IMG/VR virus record: IMGVR_UViG_2648501186_000020
From: a virus
Lineage: Duplodnaviria; Heunggongvirae; Uroviricota; Caudoviricetes
Length of the DNA: 9,478 nt
Direction: 5' to 3' (one strand)
Under the pieces are notes generated by a model that saw nothing but the letters and a program-made list of their open reading frames with translations, was not told the origin of the DNA and did not search any database. This document shows, one piece after another, positions 1 to 9,478 of the stretch. Position 1 is the first letter of the stretch; every line of letters begins with the position of its first letter. Both the position numbers and the translations under genes were made by a program.

Positions 1-1254
1 ATGCTGGAACAAATGGGCATTGCCGCGAAGCAAGCCTCGTATAAATTAGCGCAACTCTCCAGCCGCGAAAAAAATCGCGTGCTGGAAAAAATCGCCGATG
101 AACTGGAAGCACAAAGCGAAATCATCCTCAACGCTAACGCCCAGGATGTTGCTGACGCGCGAGCCAATGGCCTTAGCGAAGCGATGCTTGACCGTCTGGC
201 ACTGACGCCCGCACGGCTGAAAGGCATTGCCGACGATGTACGTCAGGTGTGCAACCTCGCCGATCCGGTGGGGCAGGTAATCGATGGCGGCGTACTGGAC
301 AGCGGCCTGCGTCTTGAGCGTCGTCGCGTACCGCTGGGGGTTATTGGCGTGATTTATGAAGCGCGCCCGAACGTGACGGTTGATGTCGCTTCGCTGTGCC
401 TGAAAACCGGTAATGCGGTGATCCTGCGCGGTGGCAAAGAAACGTGTCGCACTAACGCTGCAACGGTGGCGGTGATTCAGGACGCCCTGAAATCCTGCGG
501 CTTACCGGCGGGTGCCGTGCAGGCGATTGATAATCCTGACCGTGCGCTGGTCAGTGAAATGCTGCGTATGGATAAATACATCGACATGCTGATCCCGCGT
601 GGTGGCGCTGGTTTGCATAAACTGTGCCGTGAACAGTCGACAATCCCGGTGATCACAGGTGGTATAGGCGTATGCCATATTTACGTTGATGAAAGTGTAG
701 AGATCGCTGAAGCATTAAAAGTGATCGTCAACGCGAAAACTCAGCGTCCGAGCACATGTAATACGGTTGAAACGTTGCTGGTGAATAAAAACATCGCCGA
801 TAGCTTCCTGCCCGCATTAAGCAAACAAATGGCGGAAAGCGGCGTGACATTACACGCAGATGCAGCTGCACTGGCGCAGTTGCAGGCAGGCCCTGCGAAG
901 GTGGTTGCTGTTAAAGCCGAAGAGTATGACGATGAGTTTCTGTCATTAGATTTGAACGTCAAAATCGTCAGCGATCTTGACGATGCCATCGCCCATATTC
1001 GTGAACACGGCACACAACACTCCGATGCGATCCTGACCCGCGATATGCGCAACGCCCAGCGTTTTGTTAACGAAGTGGATTCGTCCGCTGTTTACGTTAA
1101 CGCCTCTACGCGTTTTACCGACGGCGGCCAGTTTGGTCTGGGTGCGGAAGTGGCGGTAAGCACACAAAAACTCCACGCGCGTGGCCCAATGGGGCTGGAA
1201 GCACTGACCACTTACAAGTGGATCGGCATTGGTGATTACACCATTCGTGCGTAA
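1..1254 (+). CDS. proA: Gamma-glutamyl phosphate reductase (ProA), complete 417 aa
   Basis: Full-length ORF from ATG at 1 to TAA at 1252-1254. Translation reads as E. coli-type ProA ([25 protein letters not shown]...), recognised from memory. It sits directly upstream of thrW, as in the E. coli chromosome. Confidence 0.95.
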
Positions 1255-1368: not shown

Positions 1369-1444
1369 GCCGATATAGCTCAGTTGGTAGAGCAGCGCAT
1401 TCGTAATGCGAAGGTCGTAGGTTCGACTCCTATTATCGGCACCA
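1369..1444 (+). tRNA. thrW: tRNA-Thr (anticodon CGT), 76 nt including CCA
   Basis: GCCGATATAGCTCAGTTGGTAGAGCAGCGCATTCGTAATGCGAAGGTCGTAGGTTCGACTCCTATTATCGGCACCA. Cloverleaf elements are visible: D-loop AGCTCAGTTGGTAGAGC, anticodon loop with CGT, T-loop GGTTCGACTCC, 3' CCA. Position after proA matches thrW. Confidence 0.93.
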
Positions 1445-3154: not shown

Positions 3155-3516
3155 TATGCTCCAGCCTCCGGTGCTTTTGGCATTACTGCCCAGTGAGTGA
3201 TATTGACGTTTTCAAGGTCCCCGACCTGAAATGTCCACTGCCATTCTCCGGTTTCTTTTTGTCCCCAGGTGTACCAGAGAGAACGCCAGCCAATTAGCCA
3301 GCCTTCTCCGTTAGCATCGAATAACAAAACACTTTCATTTGCTGGTGGCAGTTCAGTTGACACTGGTATTACTTTGTTTTCCTGTGCTGCACATTTAGCT
3401 TCAAGCGCATCGAATTTACGCACCAGGTATTCAGCATCCGTTTCATTCACTTTCAGATCTCGCGGTACACATCTCCCACGAAGAAACCCTTCCATTTCGA
3501 AAACATTCATGCGCAT
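3154..3516 (-). CDS. DUF551-like protein, 120 aa (YfdS-like)
   Basis: Trp-rich C-terminal region (GEGWLIGWRSLWYTWGQKETGEWQWTFQ...VTHWAVMP) typical of DUF551 phage proteins. The alternative ATG at 3510 forms an ATGA overlap with the stop of the upstream gene. Size matches K-12 yfdS, from memory. Confidence 0.65.
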   Translation of the reverse strand: MRMNVFEMEGFLRGRCVPRDLKVNETDAEYLVRKFDALEAKCAAQENKVIPVSTELPPANESVLLFDANGEGWLIGWRSLWYTWGQKETGEWQWTFQVGDLENVNITHWAVMPKAPEAGA

Positions 3517-4043
3517 TTGCGTAACTCCGATAATTCGTTAAAGCGTTCCATAAACATCCCGTAGGCATGGCCTGGAGCCAGTGGAATCACGTTGAACATC
3601 TCTGTTGCCGGGATACCTTCCAGCACAGGCCAGAAAGAGCCATCATCAAGCCCGAGATCGCGGCGTTCGGTTGCCAGCATAATGAGATCGGCATATTTCA
3701 CTGGCGTGCTCATAACAGGAGGTAACCCGTATTTCTCACGGATTACGGCGTCTATTTTTTCTTCCATCCGTTTATAGTCAGGAAGAAGTCGTTTCAGTGG
3801 TGCGGGGATGTCCTGGCAATATGCTTCTGTTGCATCATGCATTAAAGCTTCAAAAGCAAATTCCTGCGGCACCAGCTGGCTGCAAAGCACCGCATGTTGG
3901 GCGACACTGTAGAAGTGTGAAAGATGTCCTGCAAAGCGACAGATATTTGAAAGGGAAACCGCGATATCGTTAATAACGATGTCGTCTTTATTTATCCTGT
4001 CATAATAAAAATGCTTCCCGGAAAAAGTTTTAATAAATGACAT
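3507..4043 (-). CDS. yfdR: HD-domain phosphohydrolase, 178 aa (YfdR-like 5'-deoxynucleotidase family)
   Basis: HD motif visible in LMHDATEAY. Start MSFIKTF at 4043 is preceded by SD GGAG with 6-nt spacer. The track's longer form starting at 4070 lacks an SD. Strongly resembles CPS-53 YfdR, from memory. Confidence 0.8.
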   Translation of the reverse strand: MSFIKTFSGKHFYYDRINKDDIVINDIAVSLSNICRFAGHLSHFYSVAQHAVLCSQLVPQEFAFEALMHDATEAYCQDIPAPLKRLLPDYKRMEEKIDAVIREKYGLPPVMSTPVKYADLIMLATERRDLGLDDGSFWPVLEGIPATEMFNVIPLAPGHAYGMFMERFNELSELRKCA

Positions 4044-4168
4044 TTTGTTCTCCACGTATATGCGCTGCACCGCGCTGAATTCCGGTAAAAGGAAGCCCTC
4101 ACCGTCCGGCGATTATTGAGTCAATTACATTTCCATAAATGCCCCCGTAGGGGCGGTTAGTTTCTCCA

Positions 4169-4255
4169 CAAAACAGAGAAGAACACCTGCGGTGGCAGCC
4201 GCCCGGATGGATTGGGTTATGAGCCCGTCGTCCGGTGATGCTCTTCTCTGTTTTG
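4169..4255. repeat. Perfect 14-bp inverted repeat CAAAACAGAGAAGA / TCTTCTCTGTTTTG enclosing a 59-nt GC-rich loop
   Basis: Read directly from the sequence. Arms are exact reverse complements. The loop contains further short complementary segments (GCGG/CCGC, CCGG/CCGG). Confidence 0.85.
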
Positions 4256-4523
4256 TAAAAAGGACGGTACCAGCCGGAAGCAAGGGTACAAGCTGGTACC
4301 GCCAAGACTACACACAGCATAAAGTTGTGGTGCCGGGTGCCTCCCGGTGCCTGGCGAAGGTTGCACACCAGGCGGGTGGGTATCCACAGAAGGTCGACTG
4401 TCAGCCTCAACCTTAACCCGCGTGCGCTGAGCCGCATTCACCACAACGCTAAGGATTCTCTCTGGTTGAAAATACTTAGCTGTTATGTGCCTGCTTTTAG
4501 CCACATCAGGCGAGGTGGACCTA

Positions 4524-4572
4524 GTTATTCCCCAACAACAAGGATTCGGTTAATCTGGTTATCCCCAACAAC
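4524..4572 (+). repeat. Two direct repeats GTTAT(T)CCCCAACAAC, 34 bp apart, immediately upstream of the orf144 RBS; a third degenerate copy (CCACAACGCTAAGGATTC) lies at 4441-4458
   Basis: Copies at 4524-4539 and 4558-4572. The AAGGATTC...CTGGTT context also recurs at 4451-4468 and 4540-4560. Confidence 0.7.
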
Positions 4573-5367: not shown

Positions 5368-5395
5368 ATTATGTATCTCAAAGGTACATTGTCAA
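5368..5395 (-). promoter_or_regulatory. PL-like sigma70 promoter with overlapping operator (OL)
   Basis: Minus strand reads TTGACA (5395-5390), 16-nt spacer, CATAAT (5373-5368). Palindrome TACAT-T-ATGTA (5365-5375) overlaps the -10. GGTACA half-sites at 5363-5368 and 5383-5388 resemble the OR half-sites. Confidence 0.6.
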
Positions 5396-5396
5396 G

Positions 5397-5422
5397 TATA
5401 AAAAAACCTGCCGAAGCAGGTT
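5397..5422 (-). terminator. Rho-independent terminator just downstream of cI (minus strand)
   Basis: Minus-strand hairpin AACCTGC-TTCG-GCAGGTT followed by a 7-U run. It lies 13 nt after the cI stop. Confidence 0.6.
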
Positions 5423-5434
5423 CATAAACATTGA

Positions 5435-6109
5435 TTAGGCTTTGATTTTGTATCTTCTTGGTTTTCCTGAGAAAATCACTGTACCAATTATAGAGCAATT
5501 ACCGTTGATCTTAATGTAAGGCTCAGGCCAGTTTGGGTTTAACGCTTTGAGATAACGCTGTGTCCCATCTTCTATCAACCTTTTGAAGGTGGTTTCACCT
5601 GTATCGTGCATCAATGCAATAACGTCGTCACCGTGGCAGGCAGGTACTTCAGGATCGACAAAAATCATGTCTCCCGGGCGGTACTCATCAATCATTGAAT
5701 CACCTATCACCCGCAAGATATAAGTCATTTCCCCACAGGGTACAGGGCAGGGATACGTTTCTGCTGTGCTCAAATCAACCTCAGAATATCCAACTTCTTT
5801 CCATGCTCCGGCCTGTACCCATGATATGACAGGGACTAATGTGATTTGTTTATTAGTGATTGAAACATCAGGTTTTTTTGTGATGTTCGTTGTCTGGTGT
5901 TCTTGATCGAGCCATCCGACAGGCAGGTCGAAACATTTTTCGATGTGTCGTGCCATGCTGTCACCGATATTTTTAGTAGCACCATCTCCCATAAACCTGC
6001 TGGTCTGGGTTGGCTCGCGATCAATCATAGTGGCAAAGGAAGAATTCCCGCCAACACCATCTCTCAGTTTTCTGGCGTTAGACCGCCGGATGTCATGGAT
6101 TGTTTTCAT
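5435..6109 (-). CDS. cI: Prophage repressor, CI / C2-like, 224 aa (N-terminal HTH, C-terminal S24 LexA-like autopeptidase)
   Basis: C-terminal VIGDSMIDEYRPGDMIFVD contains the S24 Ser motif; TFKRL supplies the Lys. Candidate Ala-Gly cleavage site in WVQAGAW. Divergent from a cro-like gene across an operator-rich spacer. Confidence 0.88.
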   Translation of the reverse strand: MKTIHDIRRSNARKLRDGVGGNSSFATMIDREPTQTSRFMGDGATKNIGDSMARHIEKCFDLPVGWLDQEHQTTNITKKPDVSITNKQITLVPVISWVQAGAWKEVGYSEVDLSTAETYPCPVPCGEMTYILRVIGDSMIDEYRPGDMIFVDPEVPACHGDDVIALMHDTGETTFKRLIEDGTQRYLKALNPNWPEPYIKINGNCSIIGTVIFSGKPRRYKIKA

Positions 6110-6400: not shown

Positions 6401-6431
6401 CAGAACACTTTCAATTTTTAACCACAGAACG

Positions 6432-6995
6432 ATGAGGCTAATCGTGGGTAAGCATCACTGGAAAATAGAAAAACAGCCTGAGTGGTACGTGAAAGCTGTC
6501 AGAAAAACTATCGCGGCGTTGCCGGGTGGTTACGCTGAAGCGGCTGACTGGCTCGATGTAACAGAAAACGCTTTATTCAACCGCCTTCGTGCAGATGGCG
6601 ATCAGATTTTCCCGCTGGGATGGGCAATGGTTTTACAGCGTGCTGGTGGCACTCACTTCATTGCTGATGCTGTGGCGCAGTCTGCAAATGGCGTCTTTGT
6701 GTCTCTTCCTGACGTCGAGGATGTGGACAACGCCGATATCAACCAACGCCTGCTGGAGGTCATTGAACAGATCGGCAGTTATTCAAAACAGATTCGTTCA
6801 GCAATTGAAGACGGTGTAGTGGAACCGCATGAGAAGACAGCAATTAACGACGAGTTGTACCTCTCAATTTCGAAGCTGCAGGAGCATGCAGCACTGGTCT
6901 ACAAAATTTTTTGCATTTCAGAAAGTAATGACGCCCGCGAGTGTGCAGCTCCGGGCGCCGTGGCGTGTCGTGACTGTGGAGAAACTAACGCATGA
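6432..6995 (+). CDS. Hypothetical protein at the cII position, 187 aa (possibly a YdaT-like CII functional analogue)
   Basis: ORF directly after cro. A GTG at 6444 with SD GAGG (6434-6437) may be the true start. C-terminus is Cys-rich ([14 protein letters not shown]). Stop TGA overlaps the next ATG as ATGA. Product assignment is a guess from position. Confidence 0.6.
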
Positions 6996-7330
6996 ACAGT
7001 TTAACAACACACTACCGTCGCTCGCAACTGATTGCGCTTCCTGTACCGGGTGGAAAAGCGAAGGTGGAGTATTGCTATGCAGTGAATGTACCAGGTGACA
7101 GGGAAATTGTAACCCACAGCTTTGCAGAGTGGGCTGTGGGGGATTTCAACCGGCAGAAGGAGGCAGTCCTTTGCGACAAGTTAACCGCTGGTTCAAAGAT
7201 CACTACGGAGTGCCCGTCAGAGTCATTCGTTGGGAGCCGGAAACACAACGGGTTATCTACCTCCGTGAAGGCTATGAGCATGAGTGCTTCAGCCCGCTCG
7301 AACAGTTTCGTCGTAAATTCAGGGAAATAG
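6992..7330 (+). CDS. Hypothetical protein, 112 aa; conflicts with same-strand ORFs in another frame, see findings
   Basis: Strong SD GGAGA (6978-6982) and ATGA start/stop coupling with the upstream gene. The C-terminal third ([24 protein letters not shown]) has low-complexity character. Confidence 0.4.
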
Positions 7331-7350
7331 AGGTCGGTCATGAGCACTAA
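7129..7350 (+). CDS. Alternative small ORF, 73 aa, mutually exclusive with 6992..7330 over most of its length
   Basis: More protein-like composition ([34 protein letters not shown]). Ends 11 nt into the O-like gene. No obvious SD at its ATG. Confidence 0.3.
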
Positions 7351-8281
7351 ATTAACCGGCTATGTATGGGATGGTTGCGCAGCGTCAGGCATGAAATTAT
7401 CCAGCGTGGCAATTATGGCCCGCTTGGCTGATTTCAGTAATGACGAAGGTGTGTGCTGGCCATCAATTGAAACCATTGCCCGCCAGATTGGCGCGGGGAT
7501 GAGTACCGTCAGAACGGCTATCGCACGGCTGGAAGCAGAAGGCTGGTTAACGCGTAAGGCGCGTCGCCAGGGTAACCGCAATGCGTCGAATGTTTATCAG
7601 CTTAACGTTGCGAAGCTTCAGGCAGCGGCATTTTCTCAACTGTCAGATTCTGACCCGTCAAAATCTGACGTATCAAAATCTGACCCGTCAAAATTTGATG
7701 CGTCGAAATCTGGCAAAAAAGCGGGTTTTCACCCGTCAGAATCTGGCGGGGATCCGTCAGTAAAATCAAAACATGATCCGTCAGATAAAAAACCTTCTCG
7801 TCCGGACGCTTCGCAACCGGACACGCAGACGGCTGAACAGGATTTTTTAACTCGCCATCCTGATGCGGTTGTATTCAGCCCTAAAAAGCGCCAGTGGGGA
7901 ACGCAGGATGATTTGACCTGCGCACAGTGGCTCTGGAAAAAAATCATTGCCCTGTACGAGCAGGCCGCCGAATGTGACGGCGAGGTGGTTCGTCCCAAAG
8001 AACCGAACTGGACAGCATGGGCAAACGAAATTCGCCTGATGTGTGTGCAGGATGGTCGTACTCACAAACAAATCTGCGAGATGTACAGCCGCGTCAGCCG
8101 CGATCCGTTCTGGTGCCGTAACGTGCTCAGCCCGTCGAAGTTGCGGGAAAAATGGGATGAGCTTTCCCTGCGCTTATCGCCGTCCGTCAGCACGCACACA
8201 GAAAAACGTGAAGACCCGTACTTCAAAGCCAGTTACGACAACGTGGACTACAGCCAGATCCCGGCAGGATTCAGGGGGTGA
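7340..8281 (+). CDS. Replication initiation protein, lambda O-like (N-terminal HTH, repeat linker, C-terminal domain), 313 aa
   Basis: SD AGAGG with 6-nt spacer. N-terminus has the replication-initiator-type HTH (SVAIMARLADFSNDEGVCWPSIETIARQIGAGMSTVRTAIARLEAEGWL). Internal iterons encode a DPSKSD repeat linker. Sits at the O position after cro and the cII-position gene. Confidence 0.82.
   Translation: MSTKLTGYVWDGCAASGMKLSSVAIMARLADFSNDEGVCWPSIETIARQIGAGMSTVRTAIARLEAEGWLTRKARRQGNRNASNVYQLNVAKLQAAAFSQLSDSDPSKSDVSKSDPSKFDASKSGKKAGFHPSESGGDPSVKSKHDPSDKKPSRPDASQPDTQTAEQDFLTRHPDAVVFSPKKRQWGTQDDLTCAQWLWKKIIALYEQAAECDGEVVRPKEPNWTAWANEIRLMCVQDGRTHKQICEMYSRVSRDPFWCRNVLSPSKLREKWDELSLRLSPSVSTHTEKREDPYFKASYDNVDYSQIPAGFRG
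7652..7792 (+). repeat. Putative replication origin iterons inside the O-like gene: four in-frame tandem 15-bp repeats (7652-7711) plus three more spaced CCGTCAG copies
   Basis: GACCCGTCAAAATCT / GACGTATCAAAATCT / GACCCGTCAAAATTT / GATGCGTCGAAATCT, then CCGTCAGAATCTGG (7733-7746), CCGTCAGTAAAATC (7755-7768), CCGTCAGATAAAAA (7778-7791). Analogous to lambda ori inside gene O. Confidence 0.6.
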
Positions 8282-8283
8282 TC

Positions 8284-8709
8284 ATGAGTCTTTTGAATGA
8301 CGTTCAGAAATTCATTGAAGCCCATCCGGGCTGTACTTCCGGAGACATTGCAGATGCTTTTGCTGGTTACTCACGGCAGCGCGTTCTGCAGTCAGCAAGC
8401 AAGTTACGTCAGAGTGGGCGTGTGGCTCACCGTTGTGAAGGAGATACACGCAGACATTTCCCGCGCCTGACTGAGAGAGCGCAGGAGCCGGAACCACAAT
8501 CTGTTCGTGAAACCAGACCTGTGCGCAATTTCTATGTCGGCACTAACGATCCCCGGGTGATTTTGTGCCTGACCCGCCAGGCTGAAGAGCTGGAGTCCAG
8601 GGGCTTATACCGTCGTGCTGCAACGGTGTGGATGGCGGCATTCCGTGAAAGTCACTCCCAGCCAGAACGAAACAACTTTCTGGCGCGTCGAGAAACGAAG
8701 TATGAATAA
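8284..8709 (+). CDS. Hypothetical protein, about 141 aa, with a C-terminal PerC/Pch-like motif
   Basis: ATG at 8284 preceded by AGGGGG; a GTG at 8278 overlaps the O stop. C-terminal EELESRGLYRRAATVWMAAF resembles the PerC-family signature as recalled. Stop overlaps the next ATG. Confidence 0.6.
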   Translation: MSLLNDVQKFIEAHPGCTSGDIADAFAGYSRQRVLQSASKLRQSGRVAHRCEGDTRRHFPRLTERAQEPEPQSVRETRPVRNFYVGTNDPRVILCLTRQAEELESRGLYRRAATVWMAAFRESHSQPERNNFLARRETKYE

Positions 8710-9478
8710 TCTGATGGTCATTGATGGTATTGAAGTTCGTCGTGATGCTTATGGGCGTTACAGCCTGAACGATCTGCATCGCGCAGCAGTAGCATCTGGT
8801 GCAAATGCCAGAACCAAGGAGCCAGGAAAGTTTCTTTCCAGCCAACAAACTGTTGAGCTTGTTCATGAATTAACCAACACCCAGAATTTGGGTGTTGACC
8901 CGGTGAGTGTGATTCATGGGGGAAATGAACGGGGAACGTATGTCTGTAAGGAACTGGTGTATGCCTATGCAATGTGGATCAGCCCGTCATTCCATCTGAA
9001 GGTGATCCGTACTTTCGATATGGTAACCAGCGCGCCGGAAAAGTTATCCGGACAGGCTGCTGACAAGATGCAGGCTGGCGTGATTCTGCTGGACTTTATG
9101 CGCCGGGAGTTAAACCTGTCTAACTCATCTGTGCTTGGTGCCTGTCAGAAACTCCAGGAGGCTGTTGGCTTACCGAATCTGGCACCGCGCTATGCCATTG
9201 ATGCTCCTGCTGACGCGCCTGATGGCTCAAGTCGCCCTACGCTGTCGCTGAGTGCACTGCTGAAACAGTATGGTATCCGCCTTACGGCTAATCAGGCATA
9301 TCACCAGATGGCGAAGCTGGGGATCGTCGAACAGCGCGAACGATACAGCCGTACAGCGATTAACAACATCAAAAAATTCTGGTCGCTGACGGCGAAAGGC
9401 TGCATGTTCGGCAAGAACATCACCAGTCCCGCAAATCCGCGCGAGACGCAGCCGCATTTCTTCGAATCCCGATTCCCA
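8702..9478 (+). CDS. KilA-N domain protein (antirepressor-like, with an ANT/KilAC-like C-terminal region); 3' end lies beyond the window
   Basis: Open frame from ATG 8702 to the window edge with no stop (259 codons); absent from the track because it has no stop. N-terminal region (GRYSLNDLHRAAVASG...GTYVCKELVYAYAMWISPSFHLKVIRTFD) fits the KilA-N/APSES pattern. Confidence 0.72.
   Translation, partial: MNNLMVIDGIEVRRDAYGRYSLNDLHRAAVASGANARTKEPGKFLSSQQTVELVHELTNTQNLGVDPVSVIHGGNERGTYVCKELVYAYAMWISPSFHLKVIRTFDMVTSAPEKLSGQAADKMQAGVILLDFMRRELNLSNSSVLGACQKLQEAVGLPNLAPRYAIDAPADAPDGSSRPTLSLSALLKQYGIRLTANQAYHQMAKLGIVEQRERYSRTAINNIKKFWSLTAKGCMFGKNITSPANPRETQPHFFESRFP

Follow-up and report, generated by a model that had tools for sequence, protein, structure and literature searches.

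The stretch of DNA analysed here (the window, the whole 9,478 nucleotides from the virus record IMGVR_UViG_2648501186_000020) comprises the left end of a prophage of the lambdoid SfIV/SfII/CPS-53 type, and it encodes a 313-aa replication initiator that is an analogue of the lambda O protein. Comparison of this gene with its relatives leads us to propose that positions 7634-7792, in the linker-coding part of the O-analogue gene, are most probably a lambda-type replication origin. In the proposed mechanism, the N-terminal domain of the initiator (N-domain, aa 1-101) would bind short palindromic sites phased at 15 bp, with the core TGAC-NN-RTCA and the full unit TCTGACCCGTCAAAA, and would also bind three wider-spaced boxes (7729, 7750, and 7774). 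The nucleoprotein complex would then destabilize the adjoining A-rich tract (approximately 7760-7792), and the C-terminal domain (C-domain) would recruit the host helicase, presumably by way of the host DnaB-DnaC since the window has no P- or DnaC-like gene. Because the sites lie within coding DNA, the gene would read them as a disordered linker of SDxSK pentapeptides, such that slippage would alter iteron number and linker length jointly. Initiator binding, the unwinding site, helicase recruitment, and origin activity are what we infer from the evidence laid out below.

Repeats within the O-like gene

Tandem Repeats Finder reports an array at 7649-7712 with a period of 15, 4.3 copies, 77% matches, and 0% indels, which means that the period is exact but the units themselves, TCTGACCCGTCAAAA / TCTGACGTATCAAAA / TCTGACCCGTCAAAA / TTTGATGCGTCGAAA, are imperfect. 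The array is in frame with the open reading frame (ORF) at 7340-8281 and reads SDPSK SDVSK SDPSK FDASK. Every 15-bp unit consists of two inverted half-sites, TCTGAC and RTCAAAA, so that half-sites alternate along the whole array, which is able to form a long hairpin when single-stranded (folding z = -4.06). A degenerate leading unit precedes the array and forms with the next unit the palindrome GTCAGATTCTGAC at 7642-7654, detected in the inverted-repeat search and as a 13-mer match at 7642, and the repeat search also returned a related copy 33 bp downstream of the array.

The 13-mer GTCAAAATCTGAC, allowing up to 3 mismatches, has 12 matches in the window against 3.5 expected (0 of 200 shuffles), with 10 of the 12 falling within 7642-7747. 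We considered this 13-mer as the binding unit and dropped it, as the sister subfamily described below shows a 10-bp core, TGAC-NN-RTCA, to be the common element. This core is shared by the tandem units and the spaced boxes, occurring at 7651, 7666, 7681, 7729 (TCACCCGTCA), and 7774 (TGATCCGTCA) and, with 2 mismatches each, at 7696 and 7750; dyad symmetry inside the repeats is seen in GTCARAWTCTGAC and in TGAC-NN-GTCA palindromes. The heptamer CCGTCAG is found at 7733, 7754, and 7778, with more copies at 7214, 7506, 8184, and 9386 (minus strand), giving 7 in the window against 0.96 expected, a count that none of 200 shuffles reached. Altogether, the 4-5 tandem units and three spaced boxes occupy nt 295-453 of the 942-nt gene, and no comparable repeat array or iteron cluster was found elsewhere in the window.

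An initial annotation of this DNA had described four in-frame units of exact 15-bp period encoding DPSKS/DVSKS/DPSKF/DASKS, accompanied by three spaced CCGTCAG copies, inside an O-like gene where they would code for an interdomain linker. The array and the heptamers are as described, the peptides being the four given above in another register, and the naming of the gene and of the linker agrees with the profile matches, gene neighbourhoods, and structure prediction that follow.

The O-like initiator

The 313-aa protein matches the PHROG family phrog_391, "replication initiation O-like", with E = 1.5e-135 over residues 1-313 (profile positions 1-298), and its gene shares 98-99% identity with genes annotated "replication protein O / primosomal protein" in SfIV, SfII, and several E. 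coli phages. Pfam searches retrieved HTH_36 at aa 23-70 (4e-11) and a weak DnaD_N match in the N-domain; no Phage_rep_O (PF04492) match was obtained at E <= 0.01, and the protein is an analogue of lambda O that stands outside the lambda O Pfam family. A sequence search for relatives of solved structure returned just weak MarR matches to the N-domain, and the C-terminal part is matched by phrog_2357, phrog_277, phrog_2514, and phrog_4880. Some homologues are encoded directly upstream of lambda-P (PF06992) or IstB/DnaC-like genes, which establishes an initiator role for the family. The K-12 counterpart is yfdO, a 5'-truncated pseudogene of prophage CPS-53.

The structure predicted by AlphaFold2 has a winged-helix N-domain spanning aa 7-101 and a helical C-domain at aa 162-280 with a predicted local distance difference test (pLDDT) score above 90. 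Between these folded domains, aa 103-160 (nt 7646-7819, which hold the repeats and boxes) score below 50, and on this prediction the repeat region is a disordered interdomain linker.

Downstream of the initiator, the window, SfIV, mEp460, and phiNP all lack a P-, DnaC-, or DnaB-like gene. The next gene in the window is PerC/yfdN-like rather than a P-like or DnaC-like loader, whereas the same C-domain family is elsewhere accompanied by lambda-P or IstB/DnaC-like genes. The loader-less module of the window is a "solo" initiator; the term "initiator-solo" was not found in the searched literature, and a literature search on phi80 gene 15 and its origin yielded nothing useful.

Conservation of the repeat DNA

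A genome scan gave 80 loci from many Enterobacterales genera, of which subsets of 74, 66, 65, and 62 entered single analyses. In a comparison with the Citrobacter phage phiNP, residues shared by both proteins are written with the same codon at 39 of 81 positions in the N-domain but at 41 of 43 within 7634-7792 (Fisher p = 2e-8), even though amino-acid identity is 88% in the N-domain and lower, 81%, in the repeat region. Across the 65 main-subfamily loci, third codon positions have a pairwise identity of 0.445 in the N-domain versus 0.752 in the block 7706-7774, and within that block the codon positions do not differ in conservation, i.e., there is no codon periodicity. Synonymous sites are thus near saturation in the N-domain; those of the repeats are conserved.

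Codon choice within the pentapeptides follows the same pattern. In 156 SDxSK units from 62 loci, the first serine is TCT in 91% (background 9%) and the second is TCA in 92% (17%), lysine is AAA in 100% (62%), and aspartate is GAC in 83% (46%), while the sole variable residue corresponds to the 2-bp spacer between the half-sites. A sister subfamily (N-domain MSSKLHGLVWEGCA...) has 15-bp units based on TTGACCCCYCAA that occur in both orientations, and one DNA motif is therefore translated as either IDPSN or VEGST. Taken together, these comparisons show that it is the repeat DNA, not the encoded peptide, that is under selection.

Association of the repeats with the N-domain

Phage mEp460 shares with the window the same upstream gene (97%) and, from window position 7782 (query position 443), a C-terminal half with 96% DNA identity, but its N-domain is unrelated and the equivalent position holds a different array (23 bp x 5.4). 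Conversely, phiNP and about 40 other loci have the same N-domain and repeats joined to a different C-domain, Phg_2220_C; the phiNP match stops at query position 479 (window position 7818), and many loci match residues 1-161/168 only. All 66 loci with a GNRN-type N-domain carry TCTGAC..RTCAAAA iterons, and other N-domain types carry other repeats, so that the family includes at least five N-domain types (four variants and the mEp460 type, which is unrelated), all with repeats of their own, and several C-domains. Repeat type thus follows the N-terminal winged-helix domain and not the flanking genes, the C-domain, or the host, and in the comparisons with mEp460, with phiNP, and across all loci the N-domain and repeats behave as one exchangeable unit. 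This exchange pattern is as described for lambdoid initiators and origins (PMC7466680, PMC8022706).

The conserved block and the A-rich tract

The most conserved part of the region is the block 7724-7792 (GTTTTCACCCGTCAGAATCTGGCGGGGATCCGTCAGTAAAATCAAAACATGATCCGTCAGATAAAAAAC), which is near-invariant in the main subfamily and whose 3' half, from GATCCGTCAGTAA onward, is kept also where the tandem iterons differ. Columns of box 1 mostly reach a consensus fraction of approximately 0.9 or higher (65 main-subfamily loci). All 74 loci contain the GATCC box, GGGGATCCGTCAGTAA, even those of subfamilies whose iterons differ, and a second box, GATCCRTYA, is present in 57 of the 74. Among the 40-mers of the gene, the least stable is 7760-7799, with a nearest-neighbour free energy of -47.0 kcal/mol (+1.9 standard deviations versus the window mean), and directly after it comes a very stable one, 7800-7839 (-63.2 kcal/mol).

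A terminator-like site was also noted on the minus strand at 7735-7722, between the array and box 1, with a short hairpin, CGGGTGAAAACCCG, followed by the T-run CTTTTTTGCC. In 43 of the 80 loci, the 2.5 kb that follow the initiator contain motifs of Dam- or MT-A70-like methyltransferases.

Copy-number variation and distribution

Alleles of the gene in E. coli differ by -30 bp in strain LD27-1 and by +15 bp in strain B20123, and whole pentapeptides account for the length differences among the protein clusters of 303, 313, 318, and 323 aa. In 66 loci the number of in-phase cores ranges from 1 to 7, with 4-5 being the commonest, and distances from the N-domain to the first GATC box form a series at 15-nt steps. 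The 313-aa form is dominant in E. coli (5,414 and 117 members versus 87 for the 303-aa form), and the array is variable yet not hypervariable. The initial annotation had expected slippage at the repeats and had suggested aligning homologues for differences in iteron number, and the 15-bp steps are what such a comparison finds. Its wider proposal, a lambda-like layout in which the same DNA would provide both putative initiator binding sites and the code for the linker, is likewise favoured by the synonymous conservation and by the co-inheritance of N-domain and repeats.

Of 5,426 complete E. coli genomes, 2,914 contain at least a partial match to a 301-bp query across the repeats (7560-7860), and in 1,946 the match covers at least 80% of the query; the module is also present in the Shigella serotype-converting phages SfII and SfIV. 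A search of a plasmid collection for a natural minimal replicon returned prophages in large replicons, phage-sized circles, and one 16-kb circle. The last, NZ_CP148542.1 (a 15,977-bp circular E. coli "plasmid"), is a lambda-dv-like circle with cI, cro, a DnaC-like gene, a nin region, Q, and lysis genes; its O-like gene belongs to the sister subfamily, is frameshifted in the record, and has TTGACCCGTCAA iterons. As a natural replicon of the sister-subfamily gene, this circle is suggestive, not decisive. Records titled Vagococcus, Chryseobacterium, Martelella, and Bacillota (a metagenome-assembled genome) hold typical enterobacterial versions of the gene and are likely contaminated or mislabelled contigs.

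The SrsR boxes of K-12

Kobayashi et al. (2022; PMC9181523) place the strongest peak of the LysR-type regulator SrsR (YgfI) in genomic SELEX (systematic evolution of ligands by exponential enrichment) at the "yfdO/yfdP spacer" of K-12. A DNase I footprint made there with 10-40 uM protein covers 66 bp with four 11-bp boxes (TCAaATTTTGa, TCAGATTTTGa twice, and TCAGAgTcTGa), and yfdONMLK mRNA changes with srsR deletion and overexpression. In the K-12 CPS-53 stretch, boxes on the minus strand at 3571, 3586, 3601, and 3616 equal those in Table 1 of that study; all four are reverse complements of the K-12 copies of the 15-bp unit and lie inside the truncated yfdO pseudogene, and the window holds matching boxes at 7643-7698. 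The repeats have thus been shown by experiment to bind a protein in K-12, namely a host factor, and the published SrsR consensus derives largely from the iterons of a truncated phage initiator gene. The portions of the study covered here draw no link from the repeats to a phage origin or to replication. Since repeat type follows the phage N-domain, we treat SrsR binding, which could well be genuine, as secondary or incidental, while keeping it as a rival reading and a lead.

Alternative explanations

It could be argued from the K-12 data that the array serves SrsR/YgfI in the control of downstream prophage transcription and is not an origin, given that the peak and the 66-bp protection fall in the yfdO/yfdP region, that the four published boxes exactly equal unit copies at a 15-bp spacing and recur in the window, and that yfdONMLK mRNA responds to srsR (PMC9181523). 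We consider this unlikely, as a host-factor site would not change at an N-domain swap within E. coli phages whereas the repeat type tracks the phage N-domain. The array is moreover kept in prophages of many Enterobacterales genera and lies mid-gene in intact phages with no above-chance promoter-like site there, the arrangement in K-12 arose artefactually when a deletion took away the N-domain and brought the repeats beside yfdP, and the reported footprint was made with micromolar protein at the concentrations given above. A promoter inside the repeats was itself considered and rejected, the one weak minus-strand match being no more than chance. That the region matters as protein only, as a low-complexity flexible linker changing by slippage while its DNA has no role in cis, is very improbable and already strongly disfavoured. 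The predicted disorder, the length differences among alleles, and a linker-typical composition rich in Ser, Asp, Lys, and Pro would all suit such a role, but synonymous positions are conserved like non-synonymous ones and far above those of the folded N-domain, serine codons are position-specific (TCT versus TCA), the sister subfamily keeps its DNA motif in either orientation as the peptide changes, and unrelated N-domains have unrelated repeats at the same site. Still less credible is conservation owing to an overlapping gene or a structured RNA. Small ORFs do exist in other frames, at 7581-7763 (plus strand), 7602-7769 (minus), and 7729-7998 (minus), and the single strand folds well (z score as above); however, alternative frames are open in 0/74, 0/74, 0/74, 7/74, and 33/74 relatives, and we rejected an overlapping ORF given that none is open across the region in all 74. 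No Rfam family matches the region, a tRNA being the sole match in the Rfam search of the window, and the folding is a direct result of the alternating inverted half-sites. The O-like protein might instead bind the sites for autoregulation, for replication control by origin pairing, or for exclusion of related phages, with the true origin lying elsewhere. Surplus iterons in iteron plasmids do serve copy-number control, co-variation of N-domain and repeats shows that they belong together and not the purpose of binding, and the AT-rich element is weak. Against this, the layout matches that of mapped lambdoid origins (repeats in the initiator linker, then an A-rich tract), nothing comparable to the array exists elsewhere in the window, and the boxes nearest the A-rich tract are the most conserved, paralleling lambda, all of which leads us to regard a role other than initiation as quite unlikely.

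Several points nevertheless weigh against a lambda-type origin at 7634-7792. Binding of the repeats by the O-like protein and origin activity of the segment are what we infer, and the host regulator SrsR is the sole protein shown to bind these repeats. The sequence does not decide which pair of half-sites would make one putative binding site, and the 15-bp centre-to-centre spacing is tighter than that of lambda iterons, which are roughly 20 bp. The A-rich tract is short and moderately unstable, with several intergenic 40-mers in the window being less stable. The three near-invariant boxes, being common to subfamilies with different tandem iterons, may have a reader other than the N-domain. Lastly, no helicase-loader gene that could be the partner in helicase recruitment was found after the initiator in the window, SfIV, mEp460, or phiNP.

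As the block 7724-7792 is common to initiator subfamilies with differing tandem iterons, it may in addition be a common origin core for the host machinery, with Dam/SeqA-gated unwinding, a helicase-loading site at which host DnaB-DnaC is captured directly by the loader-less "solo" initiator, and SrsR on the iterons tying prophage replication to stationary-phase stress. We hold this extension to be doubtful, although the downstream adenine-methyltransferase motifs noted above (43 of 80 loci) would be in keeping with Dam/SeqA-gated control.

Prophage context

The features of the window are collected in Table 1. By profile annotation, the O-like gene comes after the cI-cro-cII-like genes, and the prophage insertion site adjoins the tRNA-Thr(CGT) gene, downstream of the proA-like aldehyde dehydrogenase gene. 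The minus-strand yfdR-like gene encodes a homologue of YfdR, the 5'-deoxynucleotidase of CPS-53, for which DnaA binding and inhibition of chromosomal initiation have been reported (PMC4776307). DnaA-box-like 9-mers (TTATCCACA, at most 1 mismatch) are enriched in the window, with 10 found versus 2.1 expected; the excess is located at 4162-4567, which has four plus-strand copies, and at 6418-6983, and no such box lies inside the O-like gene. Downstream, the yfdN/PerC-like ORF encodes 143 aa in the window versus 164 aa in SfIV and K-12. A KilA-N-type ORF (MNNLMVIDGIEVRRD...) begins near 8703 and extends to the window end, and SfIV_43 together with the end of SfIV_42 is therefore apparently deleted in the window. 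A 10-bp tandem, TGATGGTAT, at 8712-8733 is present in mEp460 too (5386-5407 of the mEp460 stretch).

Table 1. Features of the 9,478-nt window, with positions counted from its first nucleotide
Feature	Position	Strand	Basis or remark
proA-like aldehyde dehydrogenase gene	1-1254		
tRNA-Thr(CGT)	1369-1444		
Integrase	1459-2622	minus	
yfdR-like 5'-deoxynucleotidase	3507-4070	minus	
cI-type repressor	5435-6109	minus	
cro and cII-like gene	6432-6995		
phrog_1170 gene	6992-7330		
O-like replication initiator gene, 313 aa	7340-8281	plus	ORF, translation, profile matches
Winged-helix DNA-binding N-domain coding region, aa 1-101	7340-7642	plus	Presumed iteron reader
Degenerate leading unit TCTCAACTGTCAGAT	7634-7648		Repeat search
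Tandem array	7649-7712		Four 15-bp units (7649, 7664, 7679, 7694) and start of a fifth unit
Spacer with A-run GCAAAAAAGCGGGTTT	7713-7728		Moderately conserved
Conserved box 1 TCACCCGTCAGAATCTGGC	7729-7747		Isolated iteron-like copy, 33 bp past last tandem core
Conserved box 2 GGATCCGTCAGTA	7750-7762		GATC at 7751
A-rich tract	7760-7799		Candidate DNA-unwinding element, overlaps boxes 2 and 3
Conserved box 3 TGATCCGTCAGAT	7774-7786		GATC at 7775
GC-rich segment CCTTCTCGTCCGGACGCTTCGCAACCGGAC...	7793-7840		C-domain side of module/C-domain recombination joint
C-terminal helical domain and tail coding region	7823-8281	plus	Presumed replisome/helicase recruitment; AlphaFold2, phrog matches
PerC/yfdN-like gene	8278-8709		

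Significance and comparison with known systems

The analysis assigns a probable origin to a very common prophage replication module. In the searched literature, the replication region of the SfII/SfIV-type module is described by homology only, the SfIV genome paper giving no origin, and that literature contains no description of this iteron family, of its GATC-bearing conserved core, of the lack of a loader gene, or of the repeats being the SrsR boxes. The family offers a clean natural test set for the co-evolution of winged-helix initiators and their sites, and it raises the problem of how an initiator functions when the phage encodes no helicase loader. The strongest SrsR/YgfI site of K-12 is the array of iterons left in a phage initiator gene that has lost its 5' end, which leads one to ask whether SrsR binding there has a physiological role or is incidental and whether phage origins can be targets of a host regulator.

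In lambdoid phages, the origin is placed midway within gene O and combines iterons with an AT-rich tract, and its iteron number varies with the length of O (PMC7466680, PMC8022706), with 4 iterons in lambda and 6, adding 13 aa, in Stx phages (PMC7466680). The region described here resembles ori-lambda (lambda and the Stx phages 933W and P27) in having dyad-symmetric repeats in the middle of an initiator gene, followed by what may be an A/T-rich unwinding tract, in that the repeats encode the segment between a DNA-binding N-domain and a C-domain, in an iteron number that varies among phages and changes protein length, and in the N-domain and iterons being the specificity module. In lambda, the iterons adjoining the AT-rich tract suffice for unwinding and replication (PMC7466680), and the boxes described here, with the proximal ones more strongly conserved, agree with this by analogy. 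Unlike lambda O, the present protein falls outside of Phage_rep_O and has an HTH_36 / DnaD_N-like N-domain; its units succeed one another head to tail at 15 bp, where lambda has sites of approximately 20 bp, and its A-rich tract is short. In addition, iteron types share three further near-invariant boxes of a GATC-bearing block, and the window has no P gene after the initiator.

Gene 18 of P22 and of phage L encodes distantly related initiators with their own repeats in the coding regions, from which origins were inferred (PMC8022706), and in both respects it is similar to the gene described here. The repeats there are, however, four of approximately 20 bp in P22 and six of 11 bp (TGTCCAACGGA) in L, and those initiators pair with the DnaB-type helicase gp12, which has no counterpart in the window. 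The SrsR (YgfI) boxes of CPS-53 yfdO/yfdP are the same DNA, called host-factor sites in an "intergenic spacer" in that study; here the repeats are inside an intact initiator gene, and the comparative evidence favours a phage origin. Iteron plasmids of the RepA / pi / TrfA class also combine tandem direct repeats with a winged-helix initiator, an adjoining unwinding element, and a variable repeat number. In those plasmids the iterons typically measure 17-22 bp, are located outside the rep gene, and occur together with DnaA boxes, whereas the repeats in the window are coding and the gene holds no DnaA box at up to 1 mismatch. The layout itself is textbook lambdoid biology, here in a different initiator family.

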